IMG/VR virus record: IMGVR_UViG_2713896909_000006
Reading direction: 5' to 3' (one strand)
Length of the DNA: 10,206 nucleotides
Source of the DNA: a virus
Taxonomy: Duplodnaviria; Heunggongvirae; Uroviricota; Caudoviricetes
The translations under genes and the position numbers were made by a program. The stretch's first letter is position 1; each line of letters opens with the position of its first letter. The notes beneath the pieces were generated by a model, which saw nothing but the letters and a program-made list of their open reading frames with translations, ran no database searches and had not been told where the DNA came from. Of the stretch, positions 1 to 6,230 are shown piece by piece.

Positions 1-290
1 CCGTCAACACAGACTTTCAGCTCACCATATGTCGGGTGGACAAGCGTGCCGGGACCGGGTTTATTCAGCGCGTCAATCAGGCGATCGCGCTGGTCAAAGC
101 AGTCATCTCCCACCACATAAGCTGTGATGGACGGGCGGAAAGTGACTTTTCCCAGATCTTCGGTATAGGGCTTGTCGCGGTTCGGGTATTCATGTGTTTC
201 CACACGGCGACCGATTCCCGCACTTTCTTCTTCAACCTTAAACGGTACGCCGCGAAATGACGCATCCTGAAGCCTGTCTTTCCACGTCAT
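1..290 (-). CDS. Mu gpN-like DNA-circularisation / baseplate protein, N-terminal part (gene runs off the window start)
   Basis: Minus-strand frame with ATG at 290..288 preceded by GGAG (299..296, 5-nt spacer) and open to coordinate 1. Translation MTWKDRLQDASFRGVPFKVEEESAGIGRRVETHEYPNRDKPYTEDLGKVTF... resembles the N-terminal domain of Mu gpN-type proteins, and the position directly after tape measure fits Mu-like tail order. Absent from the ORF track because it has no stop in the window; track ORFs 36..260(+) and 77..265(-) are other frames of the same DNA. Confidence 0.6.
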   Translation of the reverse strand, partial: MTWKDRLQDASFRGVPFKVEEESAGIGRRVETHEYPNRDKPYTEDLGKVTFRPSITAYVVGDDCFDQRDRLIDALNKPGPGTLVHPTYGELKVCVD

Positions 291-305
291 ATAAACTCCG
301 GATAC

Positions 306-361
306 AAAAAACCCGCCAAATCTGCTTTGTCAGTTATTTACATCGCAGAAGATGTGGCGGG
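306..361 (-). terminator. Putative intrinsic terminator after the AT-rich cargo gene
   Basis: In minus-strand RNA: stem CCCGCCA (361..355) pairs with TGGCGGG (318..312), with extra inner pairing GCAGA (349..345) / TCTGC (325..321), immediately followed by T6 (311..306). It starts 20 nt after the cargo-gene stop (381..383). The loop is long, so strength is uncertain. Confidence 0.4.
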
Positions 362-380
362 AACCTAATATTTTTAATTA

Positions 381-872
381 CTATCTGAGTTGAACATCAA
401 TGGAATAAATATCACCACTCTTTATAAATTTAGAATCTGTCCTTTCATCAAAAGATTCAAATGACTGTACCTTTAAAAACTTTTTCATTTTATTTTCAAA
501 AATACTTTCATTAACACCAGTTAAATACTTGAACGCTCTACCAGCAAGGACCTCATTACTTAAATCCATTGTGTTTTTATTGTCTTTGAAAAACCAAACA
601 ATAACCTTTTGTGGGCATGATGGATTATAAACAGATATATAAAACTGCGGCTCATATTTTTCATCAGCGTCATCACTAAGCATTTCTTCAGAAGATAATT
701 CTCTTCTGAATTCATATTGCCGCTTAGTTATTCCTTCATCCTTTATTATCTCTTGCTTAACTGGTGCAATACCTATAGAAGAGATTAATTCTGACTCATT
801 AAAGCTGAACTTACACTCTTCCGCAGCCAAGTTAAAAGATAAAAGTGCAGATATAAAAACAAAGATACGCAT
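381..872 (-). CDS. AT-rich cargo (moron) gene: secreted/periplasmic protein of unknown function
   Basis: Track ORF 381..890; the likely start is the third ATG (872..870) because GAAGGG sits 6 nt upstream of it and the candidate -10 at 908..903 would leave no leader for ATG 890. N-terminus MRIFVFISALLSFNLAA/EEC has the n-, h- and c-regions of a Sec signal peptide; the mature part is about 146 aa with 2 Cys. Sampled 60-nt blocks are 27-32% GC against about 50% in flanking phage genes. I do not recognise the family. Confidence 0.6.
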   Translation of the reverse strand: MRIFVFISALLSFNLAAEECKFSFNESELISSIGIAPVKQEIIKDEGITKRQYEFRRELSSEEMLSDDADEKYEPQFYISVYNPSCPQKVIVWFFKDNKNTMDLSNEVLAGRAFKYLTGVNESIFENKMKKFLKVQSFESFDERTDSKFIKSGDIYSIDVQLR

Positions 873-902
873 AATCATCCCTTCAATCATTTGTAAGGAA
901 TG

Positions 903-908
903 ATTATA
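903..908 (-). promoter_or_regulatory. Candidate sigma70 -10 hexamer (TATAAT on minus strand) for the cargo gene
   Basis: Perfect TATAAT in the 81-bp AT-rich gap between the tape-measure stop (972) and the cargo ORF. The best -35 at 17-bp spacing is poor (GGTTTT), and AT-rich DNA gives many chance -10 matches, so this is weak. Confidence 0.25.
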
Positions 909-971
909 TTAACTACTTAAAGCTGAAAACCCAAATTATGCCAGACAAAAACACATTAATCATTTTGTACA

Positions 972-2804
972 CTACCTGAACCGCGTATAGCCAACATCAT
1001 GGCTGACATCAAAACCGCTGGATCGCGTTTCCATAACCCGCATACCCGGAGGCGAATTCACAAAAGATACCTTGATCTCGCCATCAACTTTTGGCACAGA
1101 AGCTTTGTTAATCATGAAGGGATTCGAGCCTGTGGCATCGGAGGCGTTGTTTGACTGAGCCGGATCCACCGCCGGATAAGGTGTGTATCCCCGCGCCGGT
1201 ATTCCCGTCCCATAAGCATCATAAGCACCCGCGCCCCACTGCGCAGAGTTAATGGCATCGACCGTGTCACCGGAACTGTCGGTAAACCACTCAATAATTG
1301 GCTTCAGCTTGTCCCACATATCCTGAAACCACTTAACAACCGGTCCCCAGTTATTGATTACCATCCCCAGCGGCGACCAGGCAAAAACCTTCTTCAGAAG
1401 TTCCCAGCCAGCCTCAAAATAAGGACCAATGGTTTCCCAGAGCTTCTTGAAATAAGGTCCGACAACATCCCAGTTAGTGATAATTAATCCCGCAGCCAGG
1501 GCTATCGCCGTCGCAATCATTCCAATCGGCGTCATCGACATGATCCTGCTGACAATACTGATGGCACCGCCAACGCCCATCAATCCCAGTTTCAGAATCG
1601 CAAGACCGGCAGCAAGCCCGACGACGCCGCGAATAACCCGGGGATTTTCATCCGCAAACTTCGTGAATTTTTCCCCTAACTCCCCCAGCCATTGCGTGAT
1701 ATTTTTGGCGTCACCAGAAAATGCGCCGCCAATAGCCGCAAGGCCGTTAGTTGCGGTCCCCGTCATTGCCTCCCACAGGTTGGACAGCGTACCAAGCTGT
1801 GCCTGAACACGTTTATTCAGGCTGGCCTGTTTATTCATCTTCTGCTGGATCTGATCGTAGCCATCCTTTCCTTTATCGATCAGCGCATTGACCACCTGAA
1901 GGGTTTCGGCATCATCACCAAATATTGCTTTAAGTACACCAGTTCGTTTAACGTCGGTCAGTTTTCGCAGCTTTGCCAGTTGCCTGAACATGTTATCAAG
2001 ACCGCCAAAACTCCCTTTGCCGTCAGTAAAATCGAGCTGTACCCCGAGTTTCTGGCGGGCCATGATTTTATTGACGTCCCTGATTTTCTTAACGCTTAAT
2101 CCGGACTGGATAACTTTTCGCAGGGCGTTACCTGCCGACTCCCCGTTCATCCCCATCTGATCCATCATGACGCTGATGGGGGCAAGGCTCTGTGCAGCCT
2201 GAAGACCGTCCCTGTTCACCATCTTCAGAACAGAGCTGGTTTTAGTGAAGAAGGACAACATGTTGGTATCGTCAACGCCCAGATAAAACGCCTTCTGGAT
2301 AGTGTCGAACAGCCCCATCATGTCTTCTGACGCCGTTCCGGTAGCATCCTGCATCTTTGCGGCAAACTCGGCAGCCGCTTCCGGTGTTTTTTTCAGTTGT
2401 ACCGCAAGATAAGCTGTCGCTTTACCCACACCGCCAAGAATGTTTTCTGCCGGGATCCCCTGACGCACCAGCATCTGCATCATGTTCTGAAAATCAGCCG
2501 TTGTACCGGGTAGCTGGTTACCCAGGCCAATAGCCAGTTTATTGATGTCCTGAAAGCTCTTTCCAACCTCGCCGTTCGCATCCATCATGGCGACTTTCAG
2601 CCCGATGGCGGCGTTTTCCTGATCGGCATAAGATTTCAGGGAAAGCGTCAGACCCGCTGCCAGTCCGCCACCAAGCGCCAGCCCACCCTGTGACGCTTCT
2701 TCCGCCTGGCGTTTAAATCCCCGGATTTTCTTTTGCATTTTCGACAGCGCGGGAGAAAGCCTGTCGACACCGGTGATCAACGCCTTAAGCTCAAATTCAG
2801 CCAT
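972..2804 (-). CDS. Tail tape measure protein
   Basis: 610-aa ORF directly downstream of the chaperone pair, with ATG 2804 and AGGAGA about 9 nt upstream. Gly/Ala-rich N-terminal region, long hydrophobic segment (GVVGLAAGLAILKLGLMGVGG...IALAAGLIITNW) and Trp-rich repeats (GPYFKKLWETIGPYFEAGWELLKKVFAW...WFQDMWDKLKPIIEWF), all typical of tape measure proteins; position matches Mu gp42. Confidence 0.8.
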   Translation of the reverse strand: MAEFELKALITGVDRLSPALSKMQKKIRGFKRQAEEASQGGLALGGGLAAGLTLSLKSYADQENAAIGLKVAMMDANGEVGKSFQDINKLAIGLGNQLPGTTADFQNMMQMLVRQGIPAENILGGVGKATAYLAVQLKKTPEAAAEFAAKMQDATGTASEDMMGLFDTIQKAFYLGVDDTNMLSFFTKTSSVLKMVNRDGLQAAQSLAPISVMMDQMGMNGESAGNALRKVIQSGLSVKKIRDVNKIMARQKLGVQLDFTDGKGSFGGLDNMFRQLAKLRKLTDVKRTGVLKAIFGDDAETLQVVNALIDKGKDGYDQIQQKMNKQASLNKRVQAQLGTLSNLWEAMTGTATNGLAAIGGAFSGDAKNITQWLGELGEKFTKFADENPRVIRGVVGLAAGLAILKLGLMGVGGAISIVSRIMSMTPIGMIATAIALAAGLIITNWDVVGPYFKKLWETIGPYFEAGWELLKKVFAWSPLGMVINNWGPVVKWFQDMWDKLKPIIEWFTDSSGDTVDAINSAQWGAGAYDAYGTGIPARGYTPYPAVDPAQSNNASDATGSNPFMINKASVPKVDGEIKVSFVNSPPGMRVMETRSSGFDVSHDVGYTRFR

Positions 2805-3215
2805 GTGTGCGTTTCTCCTGCTCTATCCTGTTTGCCTGACTGACCAGCAAGGGAATTTCACTGATCGGCATATTCAGCAATTCGAAGGGATTAATGCGCC
2901 AGTAGCTGGCGCAGTCAAAGAAGCGATCAGTGAGGTATTCAGCCGTCAGGCCTGGAGGAAAAAACCAGCCACAAGCCACGCCGCTGCATTCAGGTCTGCC
3001 GGAGACATCTGGTCGACAGAGCTTTGCGGCACTTTCGCCAGCCGCACAATGTATTTCGATACCACATGCGCCAGAAGTCTGACGGACTCATCCTGATTCA
3101 TCTGGTAGGGATACCCCAGCTCGCGGACATCTTTCCCGGTGGGCTCATCAAACTCCAGTACGGAGAGTGTCTCGCCATGAGCGGTAATCGGTTTCTTTAA
3201 CTCAAGCTCTTTCAT
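2797..3215 (-). CDS. Tail assembly chaperone, -1 frameshift fusion (GT-like long product, about 139 aa)
   Basis: A -1 slip at T_TTT_TTC (2964..2958) moves ribosomes from codon 86 of the 89-aa ORF into the overlapping track ORF 2797..2979, adding PPGLTAEYLTDRFFDCASYWRINPFELLNMPISEIPLLVSQANRIEQEKRTHG. That extension ends 8 nt inside the tape-measure start, the usual G/GT arrangement. Confidence 0.55.
2946..3215 (-). CDS. Tail assembly chaperone, short (G-like) product
   Basis: 89-aa ORF between the tube and tape-measure genes; its ATG (3215..3213) overlaps the tube stop as TAATG. Small acidic protein in the position of lambda G / Mu gp41, ending ...VAGFFLQA* just after a slippery heptamer. Confidence 0.7.
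   Translation of the reverse strand: MKELELKKPITAHGETLSVLEFDEPTGKDVRELGYPYQMNQDESVRLLAHVVSKYIVRLAKVPQSSVDQMSPADLNAAAWLVAGFFLQA
2958..2964 (-). other. -1 programmed frameshift slippery heptamer T_TTT_TTC
   Basis: Minus-strand sequence GCT GGT TTT TTC CTC in the zero frame; the heptamer T TTT TTC fits the X_XXY_YYZ rule and lies 4 codons before the zero-frame stop. A CAGGCCTG palindrome follows. Confidence 0.55.
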
Positions 3216-3571
3216 TACTGGTAATCCCCTTCTTCACCGTGAAATTCAATATCGACCGTGCCTTCTTCGGCATTATGGTTCGCTTCGCCGTGCAGCCCGG
3301 CTGACGACAATACATAGACCTGACCGTTCGCCAGCTCGGCAGTGATGGTCATCTCATCAGACGAGGTGATTTTGCTCACCGGAAAATTCTTCGGCACCTT
3401 GAAGGTCCCTTTGACATAAGGCGCACGGTGAGTTTCCTTGCGGTCCACTGAACCGTCCAGGCCGATGATGTCATCATTGACCGTCCTGTTCATGGGCACC
3501 TCAATGCCGCCGGTCAGCGATAGCTGTTGACCGTCAATTTTGAAATAACAGGTTCCCCCGATACGGGCCAT
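3215..3571 (-). CDS. Tail tube protein (Mu gpM-like)
   Basis: 118-aa ORF immediately after the sheath gene (TAATG overlap at 3571) with GAGGAG 8 nt upstream. Size and position match contractile-tail tube proteins; MARIGGTCYFKIDGQQLSLTGGIEVPMNRTVNDD... looks like a Mu-type tube. Confidence 0.75.
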   Translation of the reverse strand: MARIGGTCYFKIDGQQLSLTGGIEVPMNRTVNDDIIGLDGSVDRKETHRAPYVKGTFKVPKNFPVSKITSSDEMTITAELANGQVYVLSSAGLHGEANHNAEEGTVDIEFHGEEGDYQ

Positions 3572-5229: not shown

Positions 5230-5790
5230 TCAGGAAGGAAGGGTTATTTCGGTGTGATGTTCGATATCGCCGTCAGGCCCGTTACCGGGATCGAGATAAT
5301 CAACATCAATCGCCAGCGTTCGCAGTTCATCCAGACTGTTCAGGTCATCCTGCTGGCGGGTATCGTCTTCGGTCAGCTCGCTGATGACCGAAAAATCGAA
5401 CTGATAAATCAGCTCATGACGATTCAGATCCAGCAGCGTGCCGCCGTCATAGGTAATCGGGTTACCGCACGCTTCCGGGTTCCAGCCCAGCAGAGCCTTA
5501 AAGAGCATCTGCCGGACATCGTCCACCACATCATACGAGGCAAACTGACCGCGCTCATCACGCCCGTTACTCAGTATGACAACCACGGAGAAGCCCTCTT
5601 TCAGCTCCTGCCAGTAGTCGGTCTGGCTTTTGTTTTCTCCCGGAGAGTCATCACCCGGTACCACATACGCCGCCGGGAGTCTCAGCTTTCCGACCTCCGG
5701 CAGATTTTTGAACTGTGCCGCGCCTGCCACCCGGTTTTCAAAATACGGGCAGCGGGCACGCAGCGCAGCAATAACAGGCGTCAGTTTCAT
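5230..5790 (-). CDS. Mu gp37-like tail protein (DUF1834-like; tail terminator/completion candidate)
   Basis: 186-aa acidic ORF between the neck proteins and the sheath, overlapping the upstream stop by 4 nt. Assignment is by position and size in a Mu-like tail module; the family call is from memory only. Confidence 0.5.
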   Translation of the reverse strand: MKLTPVIAALRARCPYFENRVAGAAQFKNLPEVGKLRLPAAYVVPGDDSPGENKSQTDYWQELKEGFSVVVILSNGRDERGQFASYDVVDDVRQMLFKALLGWNPEACGNPITYDGGTLLDLNRHELIYQFDFSVISELTEDDTRQQDDLNSLDELRTLAIDVDYLDPGNGPDGDIEHHTEITLPS

Positions 5791-6230
5791 CTGTGTCGTC
5801 GCTCCGGCTTCAGTGATTTACGCAATTCCCGCGCCAGAAAATACCAGCCGCTGCCACCGGATGCACCACGATGATGACTACGACGACGTTTTGCTCCTCC
5901 CCGGACACCAAAAAACAGAAACGCCGGATAGAAGTCACCAGAGATCATCCGGTTCCCCTTCCCGTTGCGCTGGTTAGGGGCAATGCGTGTCATAAAACCG
6001 GCTCGCTTTTTACTGGCTCTCGGCACCATGTAACCAATCGAACGAGCCAGGCGTCCGGTCTGATAACCGGGGTTTTCACCCGGTGCCGACCGCGCACGGC
6101 GCATCACCAGCCGACGGGCATCACGCATATGACGCTGCCCAATCGTGACAAACGCCCGCCGGACACGGGCGCGGTTAAAGCGCATCTCCGCGGGCTGCTG
6201 AACATCAACGTGAAAAAAGGGAGTCGCCAT
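5787..6230 (-). CDS. Neck/tail-completion protein (HK97 gp10-like or Mu gp36-like)
   Basis: 147-aa very basic ORF (Arg-rich, GENPGYQTGRLARSIGY motif) following the head-closure gene. Position and size fit the HK97 gp10 family; its start overlaps the upstream ORF by 26 nt, so the true start may be an internal Met. Confidence 0.5.
   Translation of the reverse strand: MATPFFHVDVQQPAEMRFNRARVRRAFVTIGQRHMRDARRLVMRRARSAPGENPGYQTGRLARSIGYMVPRASKKRAGFMTRIAPNQRNGKGNRMISGDFYPAFLFFGVRGGAKRRRSHHRGASGGSGWYFLARELRKSLKPERRHR

Follow-up and report, generated by a model that had tools for sequence, protein, structure and literature searches.

A tape measure–gpN gene hotspot in SfV-like prophages of enterobacteria, occupied mostly by envelope proteins, holds an old orphan gene whose product is predicted to be exported

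We analysed a 10,206-nt stretch of phage DNA (Caudoviricetes; IMG/VR record IMGVR_UViG_2713896909_000006), hereafter the window, whose source is a lambdoid SfV/e14-like temperate phage of Escherichia coli that has a head of the HK97 type, a contractile tail of the Mu type and a Q antiterminator. Its subject here is a single AT-rich gene, which we call cargo A, lying between the gene for the tape measure protein and that for gpN, a Mu gp43-like 'DNA circularization'/baseplate hub protein. We conclude that this locus is one allele of a cargo hotspot, in which the cargo, by raw counts of families, encodes mostly envelope proteins, and that cargo A is a non-essential accessory gene, dispensable for phage production. 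A preliminary description of the same DNA had seen a single gene inserted between tape measure and gpN genes; the accessory single gene stood up to analysis, whereas the one-off insertion gave way to one allele of a hotspot. We found no description of the tape measure–gpN slot of SfV-like phages, or of the cargo A family, in the accessible literature.

The occupancy of the slot was surveyed in 5,426 complete E. coli genomes. The junction was matched in about 1,090 of them, and about 350 of these carried one of four catalogued cargoes:

Slot empty (tape measure gene straight to gpN): 540 genomes
Cargo A (the gene of the window): 84 genomes
Cargo B (176 amino acids [aa], N-terminal anchor): 174 genomes
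Cargo C (bacterial PH domain, PF08000): 24 genomes
Cargo D (OB-fold with N-terminal anchor, opposite strand): 70 genomes

The slot is also empty in the Shigella phages SfV, SfI and SfII, whose backbone the window shares; there a 61-bp spacer, found in most E. coli relatives as well, separates the tape measure gene from gpN, and a 1,300-nt query covers just 682 nt. The earlier statement that the tape measure gene normally runs straight into gpN agrees with these phages and with the 540 empty genomes, and it is from the same two sets that we derive the dispensability of the cargo gene. Near-identical backbones differ in their cargo. Among 76 prophage contigs with gpN at least 98% identical, 31 were empty, 24 held cargo B, 16 cargo A and 5 cargo D. 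Among 88 more distant relatives, the gap between the two genes was either 36–54 bp or 328–1011 bp with a guanine-plus-cytosine (GC) content of 0.32–0.45, the one exception being a 2.5-kb insertion. At least 14 cargo families, unrelated to one another, fill the longer gaps. Six of them start with a signal peptide, two carry a lipobox, two an N-terminal anchor, and several are small membrane proteins. A few cargoes look cytoplasmic, namely a ClpP-like protein and a HIRAN-domain protein accompanied by a membrane protein. A relation of cargo A to cargo B was rejected (profile comparison probability 0.5%).

Single loci added further observations on the contents of the slot (L numbers are our handles for related loci). 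L144 and L179 (2486-3444) hold a two-gene cassette of a HIRAN-domain protein and a small glycine-rich membrane protein, L211 (2582-3383) a ClpP-like protein with a small membrane protein, and L206 (~940-3500) the 2.5-kb insertion, with antirepressor-like genes. These HIRAN, ClpP-like and antirepressor-type contents may be candidate defence cassettes, though without a PADLOC match. At least eight more unrelated signal-peptide or lipobox proteins occupy the slot upstream of gpN (~2700-3450) in L143, L150, L159, L161, L178, L180 and L223; one of these small proteins is a DUF7424 lipoprotein and the remainder have no Pfam match. A PADLOC search with ten further cargo families of the slot gave no match at E ≤ 0.01. 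The prophage L016 (E. coli GPEC1176, NZ_CM142791.1, 1505-2774) is decayed, with the tape measure, gpN and baseplate J genes reduced to truncated pseudogenes and cargo B (WP_000679479.1) intact, which hints that slot cargo is kept for the benefit of the host. Directly 5' of cargo B in L002 (2418-2445, minus strand) is a promoter-like site, TTGTAA-16-TAGAAT with an upstream TG, which is better than that of cargo A. Judging from such sequences, the cassettes of the slot may differ in their mode of expression.

In the window, the gap between the two tail genes, 291-971, is the exact interval from the gpN start codon to the tape measure stop codon, and the gene within it has the following features (coordinates are those of the window):

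381..872, minus strand: cargo gene, 163-aa precursor; PHROG 8976; RefSeq WP_001219112.1 (164-aa allele)
822..872, minus strand: part coding for the predicted signal peptide, MRIFVFISALLSFNLAA, with predicted cleavage before EEC; heuristic (hydrophobicity, -3/-1 rule)
813..815, minus strand: codon of Cys20, third residue of the predicted mature protein; invariant in the close alignment A1, 14/15 in the deep alignment A2
615..617, minus strand: codon of Cys86, invariant in A1 and A2; presumed disulfide partner of Cys20

That an AT-rich gene lies here was borne out. GC content was 0.28–0.34 in 200-nt windows from 301 to 1000, and 0.50–0.57 in the flanks on both sides, which match PF10145 and PF07157. 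The coding sequence as a whole has a GC content of 0.315 against a mean of 0.535 for all 492-nt windows elsewhere in the window (standard deviation 0.034, minimum 0.463; z = -6.5). A comparison of codon positions with the flanking genes, proposed earlier, pointed the same way, with a GC content at third positions (GC3) of 0.262 vs 0.58 for the tape measure gene and 0.55 for gpN. No second low-GC island was found anywhere in the 10.2-kb window, in keeping with the view that this is its only accessory locus. The open reading frame (ORF) of 163-169 codons was likewise found on the strand of the tail genes, at 381-872 or 381-890. The longer form (381..890) starts at the first, upstream ATG at 890 and gives 169 aa; the likely start codon is the ATG at 872-870 (MRIFVF...), 5 nt past GAAGGGA at 884-878, since PHROG 8976 and all homologues begin there.

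Pairwise dN/dS (nonsynonymous to synonymous substitution rates) of the cargo gene was 0.06–0.21, and 36 columns were invariant in an alignment of members down to 55% identity. The length is kept at 160–168 aa across genera, and a Shine-Dalgarno sequence is present in every variant. We conclude that cargo A is a real gene under purifying selection. The strains that carry it came from many sources, including chicken, cattle, mouse, human and water.

The cargo A family is very small: a search of 5.8 billion proteins yielded 18 clusters (90% identity), and one of 1.84 billion yielded 12 representatives (50% identity). Its members come from Escherichia, Shigella, Salmonella, Citrobacter, Atlantibacter, Kosakonia and seven Yersinia species. 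In all 76 loci holding a member, the gene was placed directly between the tape measure gene and gpN; no member was seen outside this slot, and none next to toxins or in host islands. Cargo GC was below flank GC in 55 of 55 loci measured (0.31–0.40 vs 0.48–0.55). The identity of the cargo to the window's copy and that of the adjacent tape measure C-terminus fell together, from 99% vs 99% through 62% vs 52% and 36% vs 36% to 27% vs 36%. On the grounds of the constant slot, the low GC everywhere and the parallel divergence, cargo A is an old, slot-bound resident that was repeatedly lost or swapped, not a recent import. The preliminary description had called the gene horizontally acquired, and in the sense of recent import this is contradicted by the shared slot of the 76 loci and a divergence that tracks the tape measure C-terminus. 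It had also named a homologue in all relatives, an ordinary GC content and a missing signal peptide as grounds for giving up its view; instead, the gene is missing from some relatives, its GC content is low throughout, and a signal peptide is predicted.

Movement of cargo A was seen only as presence or absence between near-identical backbones, and on this evidence the gene moves solely by loss, replacement or recombination through conserved flanks. Taking the definition of a moron from PMC3594210, cargo A is extra DNA absent from close relatives and has a GC content unlike that of its neighbours; dissemination among different phage genomes was not found, all 76 loci belonging to one phage lineage.

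The predicted mature protein has about 146 aa (17.1 kDa, pI 4.9) and contains no His. Its precursor begins with MR, followed by a hydrophobic core of 11–13 residues (IFVFISALLSF) and by NLAA before EEC, which parse as n-, h- and c-regions. Kyte-Doolittle hydropathy is 2.7 over residues 3-13, and the family maximum is 2.4–3.2 at residues 3-16. At the cleavage site, the family has A or S at -1 and L, V, A, S, I or T at -3. A Sec signal peptide had been proposed before, and this heuristic prediction recovers its pattern in 14 of 15 family members despite sequence drift. A second hydrophobic segment was not found in the precursor (maximum 0.94 past residue 35). The protein is very probably exported, presumably to the periplasm, as judged from these sequence features. 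We rejected a lipoprotein, as there is no lipobox and the Cys stands 2–3 residues after the predicted cleavage site, preceded by E or Q. The two Cys noted earlier in the mature part, C20 and C86, are conserved; such a pair is a feature expected of an oxidising compartment, and we infer that they would form a disulfide in the periplasm.

AlphaFold2 run on the family alignment gave a model with pLDDT 88 and pTM 0.80, in which 126 of 163 residues had pLDDT ≥ 90. The mature domain (pLDDT 85–97 in 10-residue blocks) is modelled as a mixed alpha/beta fold built of seven strands and three main helices. Polar residues conserved in the family are E26, K44, R56, N106, N127 and K151, and no catalytic-looking set was seen among them. 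Given these residues without His or an obvious catalytic set, and the absence of Pfam, NCBIfam and PADLOC matches, we infer that the protein would be a binding protein rather than an enzyme.

Database searches placed the protein in no characterised family, as had been supposed. Pfam, NCBIfam and PADLOC gave no match for the protein or for any member of the family alignment, and PADLOC-DB 2.0 gave no family at E ≤ 1 for it or for cargoes B, C and D. The full-length match is to PHROG 8976 (E 6.3e-105, profile positions 1-164 of 164, residues 7-169 of the 169-aa ORF), which has no annotated function, so that membership is uninformative on mechanism. Sequence matches in the PDB, with the single sequence or the profile, were at chance level and were rejected (NDUA7, E 0.01; a TIR-STING fusion, E 0.075). 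A Foldseek search of the model against the PDB returned nothing at E < 0.001, and no fold is shared with the solved periplasmic lysozyme inhibitors (Ivy, PliC/MliC, PliG) or periplasmic type VI secretion system immunity proteins. The sole significant structural neighbour was BFVD entry A0A8S5RVB8 of Siphoviridae sp. ctLeG9 (180 aa; Foldseek E 5e-6, TM score 0.60, 14% identity), whose label 'ABC transporter periplasmic binding protein' is probably uninformative.

Upstream of the cargo gene lies a spacer that contains a candidate promoter and a predicted RNA hairpin over the ribosome-binding site (RBS):

873..971, minus strand: AT-rich spacer from tape measure stop to cargo start, 99 nt
943-935, minus strand: second -10-like motif TGgCATAAT; read from sequence
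903..934, minus strand: candidate weak sigma-70 promoter, TTGGGT (934-929), 17 nt, TAATAT (911-906) overlapping TATAAT; 7/12 positions; read from sequence
908-903, minus strand: TATAAT, 30 nt before the ATG, without an acceptable -35 at 16–18 nt
871..908, minus strand: RBS- and start-codon-occluding RNA hairpin of 14 bp (inverted repeat I1), with 5' arm 908-895 (UAUAAUCAUUCCUU, including the TATAAT) and 3' arm 884-871

In loci with the window's form of the cassette, such spacers measure 61–134 nt. The 3' arm of the hairpin takes in the Shine-Dalgarno sequence GAAGGGA (884-878) and reaches the second base of the AUG (872-870). The predicted folding energy is -16.5 kcal/mol with a z of -4.07, and none of 200 shuffled sequences folded as well. 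Eleven diverged variants keep the pairing by means of compensatory changes, and RNAalifold on the variants gave 7 pairs, 3 of them with double changes. In the hairpin alignment 89.6% of the cells were paired, vs 19–75% in slid controls, and the covariation score of 0.403 (vs 0.262 ± 0.037) was reached by none of 500 shuffles. We take this conservation and covariation as supportive rather than proven. In the E. coli variant L045, the single G-U pair of the hairpin is a G-C pair. Searches against Rfam found no family in positions 1-3000 of the window.

In read-through RNA at 25–42 °C, the predicted probability of being free was 0.01 for the Shine-Dalgarno sequence and 0.08 for the AUG; for an RNA starting at 897-894, the AUG was predicted to be free at more than 0.9. 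This modelling suggests that translation may be restricted to locally initiated transcripts. An RNA thermometer was rejected for the read-through RNA, because the Shine-Dalgarno sequence stays paired (0.01 free) from 25 to 42 °C. As for the TATAAT, which had been pointed out before as a promoter element, the motif is present at 908-903, but it forms the 5' arm of the conserved hairpin and has no acceptable -35. A promoter at this position is possible from the sequence. At the homologous position, the variant L058 has TTGACA-16-AATATT (10/12), and several diverged variants have a -10-like hexamer at the start of the 5' arm.

Downstream of the cargo gene, the transcript passes a second hairpin before reaching gpN:

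306..361, minus strand: intrinsic-terminator-like hairpin, with outer stem 361-355 (CCCGCCA) pairing with 318-312 (TGGCGGG), inner stem 349-345 pairing with 325-321, and T6 at 311-306
296..299, minus strand: gpN ribosome-binding site GGAG, within the conserved backbone junction ...TTTTTTnTATCCGGAGTTTATATG; read from sequence

The 90-nt hairpin region has a folding energy of -22.3 kcal/mol (z = -2.2). A homologous element, ACCCGCTTCGGCGGG with a T-run, stands directly before the gpN RBS in all cargo A loci examined; compared with this form, the loop of the window's copy is longer by an insertion of about 35 nt, which makes the second, inner stem. Empty sites have a similar hairpin, CCCACTTCGGTGGG, and the SfII record annotates the element as 'terminator'; the TTTTTTnTATCCGGAGTTTATATG junction is likewise common to empty and occupied sites. 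The hairpin before gpN is conserved across genera in occupied and empty slots (L001, 1790-1850; L006, L008, L049, L058). Since hairpins homologous to it stand before gpN in other cassettes and in empty sites too, we assign it to the slot: by its sequence, the terminator-like hairpin appears to be a feature of the slot backbone and not of a particular cargo. The hairpin and T6 reported earlier are thus present (361-306) but do not appear to be the moron's own terminator. With the Q antiterminator in the phage, late transcription would be expected to pass this element.

Among known systems, the HK97 gp15 moron is a neighbour of the tape measure gene; the prophage expresses it, and it prevents genome entry in a manner dependent on the incoming tail (PMC3594210). 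Like gp15, cargo A is a single small accessory gene in a lambdoid tail operon beside the tape measure gene, with a deviant GC content, absent from close relatives, and with a product located (here by prediction) in the envelope. Unlike cargo A, gp15 lies upstream of the tape measure gene (between it and the chaperone gene) and is an inner-membrane protein, whereas cargo A lies downstream and is predicted to encode a soluble exported protein. There is no sequence or fold relationship between the two, the cargo A family is by its sequences old and slot-bound, and exclusion by gp15 is experimental, whereas cargo A is known from sequence. The gp15 moron was reportedly described by Juhala et al. 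2000 and Cumby et al. 2012, and the hotspots for accessory and defence genes in P2 and P4 are said to have been described by Rousset et al. 2022. Tai systems, too, occupy phage 'moron loci' (PMC11364771). The slot resembles the P2/P4 hotspots and these moron loci in its fixed position between conserved genes and in the alternative, unrelated cargo of near-identical phages; it differs from them in that its cargo consists mostly of small exported or membrane proteins, not cytoplasmic nucleases or NTPases, with no PADLOC match.

T4 Spackle (Sp), the product of an early gene of a virulent phage, is a small periplasmic signal-peptide exclusion protein that inhibits the tail lysozyme at the tip of the incoming contractile tail. 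No significant fold match to cargo A was found among PDB structures, Spackle's included. Llp of T5 and Cor of phi80, N15 and HK022 are lipoproteins that bind the FhuA receptor and block the entry of related phages (PMC9586334, PMC3594210), Llp acting on its receptor from the periplasmic side (PMC9586334). Like them, cargo A encodes a small phage protein predicted to cross the inner membrane by a signal peptide, and its gene, as theirs do, stands beside tail genes whose products would encounter the same envelope components; unlike them, it has no lipobox, and it has no similarity to either. We regard HK97 gp15, T5 Llp and T4 Spackle as functional analogies only. Searches of Pfam, PHROG, PDB and Foldseek gave no similarity of cargo A to the superinfection-exclusion proteins HK97 gp15, T4 Sp and Imm, P22 SieA, Ltp or Llp/Cor. 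As far as sequence and model comparison can tell, cargo A appears to be phage accessory cargo in a tail operon, outside every characterised exclusion, immunity or defence family.

By analogy with these systems, our tentative reading, which we favour while holding it to be well short of probable, is that cargo A may be a periplasmic binding protein that blocks the entry of incoming phages (superinfection exclusion). In the proposed mechanism, the protein would be exported to the periplasm, where its two cysteines would form a disulfide and where it would bind and block incoming phages. The likeliest targets would be tail-tip proteins crossing the periplasm (the ejected tape measure or hub protein), or the periplasmic face of an envelope component that they need. 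In the E. coli form, translation would proceed mainly from a short transcript starting inside the 5' arm of the hairpin, by way of a weak local promoter active in lysogens, while read-through RNA of the late operon, running past the terminator under Q antitermination, would keep the RBS closed. In favour of exclusion, the slot adjoins the genes of two proteins that cross the periplasm during infection, and the alternative cargoes are mostly exported, lipoprotein or membrane-anchored. A bolder version, which we consider distinctly unlikely, would make the tape measure–gpN junction a dedicated hotspot of periplasm-acting entry blockers matched to the flanking tail-tip proteins, with cargo A as a new-fold binder of the ejected tape measure or hub protein of incoming relatives and a 'promoter inside an anti-RBS arm' gating by which only the short transcript of the lysogen would be translated.

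Several observations weigh against superinfection exclusion from a lysogen-expressed gene. Six compact loci (L197, L204, L212, L217, L142 and L021) start the cargo 12–25 nt past the tape measure stop, and their cargo genes have their own Shine-Dalgarno sequence and no room for an intergenic promoter; by this layout, the compact relatives look co-transcribed with the late operon, which would fit a lytic-cycle role better than expression in lysogens. A strict promoter scan found no site in 200-1100, where 2.9 were expected, and its sites in the cassette variants were not above shuffle expectation. The -10-like hexamer could arise simply from the need of the arm to complement ...GAUUAUG, and the '-10 box' may be partly a by-product of the hairpin structure. 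The covariation was measured on 11 related sequences, from about six lineages, and export was deduced solely by heuristic sequence prediction. Moreover, searches of Pfam, PHROG, PDB, Foldseek and PADLOC turned up no known exclusion, defence or immunity protein resembling the product in sequence or fold, and, because no alternative cargo matches PADLOC, guilt by association has nothing but the hotspot pattern to draw on.

Superinfection exclusion has to be weighed against other explanations of the same gene. Cargo A could be a lysogenic-conversion factor unrelated to phage exclusion, that is, a periplasmic protein that protects or adapts the host through inhibition of, or immunity to, an antibacterial toxin acting in the periplasm or host lysozyme, or through colonisation or stress tolerance, much as Gifsy-2 encodes the periplasmic SodC. 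The moron literature lists many such factors (PMC3594210), and a periplasmic location is suggested by the export signal and the Cys pair; phages can be produced without the gene, its strains come from chicken, cattle, mouse, human and water, and the decayed prophage L016 retains an intact cargo B. We nevertheless rate a host factor as somewhat unlikely, since the family never occurs outside the phage slot, beside toxins or in host islands, and the swapping of unrelated envelope proteins between near-identical phages looks more like a phage–phage arms race. Alternatively, the protein could be a late-expressed accessory of the lytic cycle, made with the tail proteins and exported, which would spare progeny from debris or lysing cells (as T5 Llp does), tune lysis, or act as a public factor released at lysis, following the logic of Shiga toxin. 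The compact, operon-embedded relatives, 12–25 nt past the tape measure stop and with their own Shine-Dalgarno sequence, suit this idea, as do the position of the gene on the strand of the late operon, upstream of a terminator that Q-modified polymerase would pass, and the co-divergence of the family with tail genes. Three things make it unlikely: the RBS and AUG are predicted to be buried in the window's form of the read-through RNA (Shine-Dalgarno 0.01 free at 25–42 °C), so that translation from the late transcript would be inefficient; functional phages exist without the gene; and the many unrelated proteins that replace this one speak against a fixed role in the lytic cycle.

The remaining explanations concern the origin of the gene. 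A recent classical moron from a low-GC donor, with its own promoter and its own terminator, could account for the GC content of 0.315 vs 0.535, for the absence of the gene from SfV, SfI and SfII, and for the TATAAT upstream and the hairpin and T6 downstream. It is, however, very improbable: in phages of Yersinia, Kosakonia and Citrobacter the same slot holds homologues as distant as 27% identity, whose GC is equally low and whose divergence keeps pace with that of the tape measure C-terminus, no member lies elsewhere among the 5.8 billion and 1.84 billion proteins, the terminator is common to empty sites, and the TATAAT lies within a structured RNA arm. Its recency and its ownership of the terminator are largely refuted. 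The database annotation as just a 'hypothetical protein' might suggest a chance reading frame in AT-rich junk DNA; this is refuted by dN/dS of 0.06–0.21, a length of 160–168 aa, a confident AlphaFold2 model and the conserved Shine-Dalgarno sequence, and its probability is negligible. A function outside all of these readings is possible.

The rest of the window belongs to the phage backbone, and the two genes that flank the slot are as follows:

972..2804, minus strand: tape measure gene, 610 aa, with TAG stop at 974-972; PF10145 (E 1e-26), phrog_28 and phrog_17727
1..290, minus strand: 5' part of gpN, ATG at 290-288, first 96 codons, running off the window

The identity of gpN follows from PF07157 DNA_circ_N (E 3.4e-35) and the phrog_184 baseplate hub (E 3.9e-54). 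All genes of the window are on the minus strand in one head-tail operon, the order from high to low coordinates being portal, protease, capsid, connector, head-closure, tail terminator, DUF2635, sheath, tube, chaperone, tape measure, cargo gene and gpN. Many E. coli prophages, as well as Escherichia phage SKA5, share 99% identity with this DNA; this type of prophage encodes cI, O, e14-type ymf genes, the Pin invertase and the Q antiterminator. The ORFs of the window other than the cargo gene match head or tail Pfam families, with the exception of a 147-aa ORF at 5787-6230 (minus strand), between the head-closure and tail-terminator genes, which has no Pfam match and a normal GC content. Counterparts of 167–172 aa lie at the same position in the related prophages L006, L008 and L018, and the ORF probably encodes an uncharacterised structural or neck protein. 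A 60-aa ORF at 2797-2979 (minus strand) overlaps, in another frame, the end of the chaperone gene (2946-3215, PF10109) and the start of the tape measure gene at 2804. This is the layout that a product of programmed frameshifting in the tail assembly chaperone gene would have, by analogy with lambda G/GT.

A moron in a tail operon is in itself ordinary; what stands out at this locus is the exported cargo across the slot, the orphan fold, and the conserved RBS hairpin overlapping a candidate promoter. The strain ECOR29 and phage SKA5 carry the gene as natural material, and SfV and SfII offer empty-slot controls. If the function is confirmed, the slot would offer a panel of small proteins from enterobacterial prophages, at least 14 in number, unrelated and mostly exported, which could be mined for mechanisms of exclusion or host adaptation. 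Such a class of envelope-level cargo is missed by searches of defence islands and is absent from PADLOC. A hairpin that hides the RBS, with a 5' arm overlapping a candidate -10 element, would limit a gene of the late operon to lysogenic expression, and the same arrangement could apply to other phage genes.

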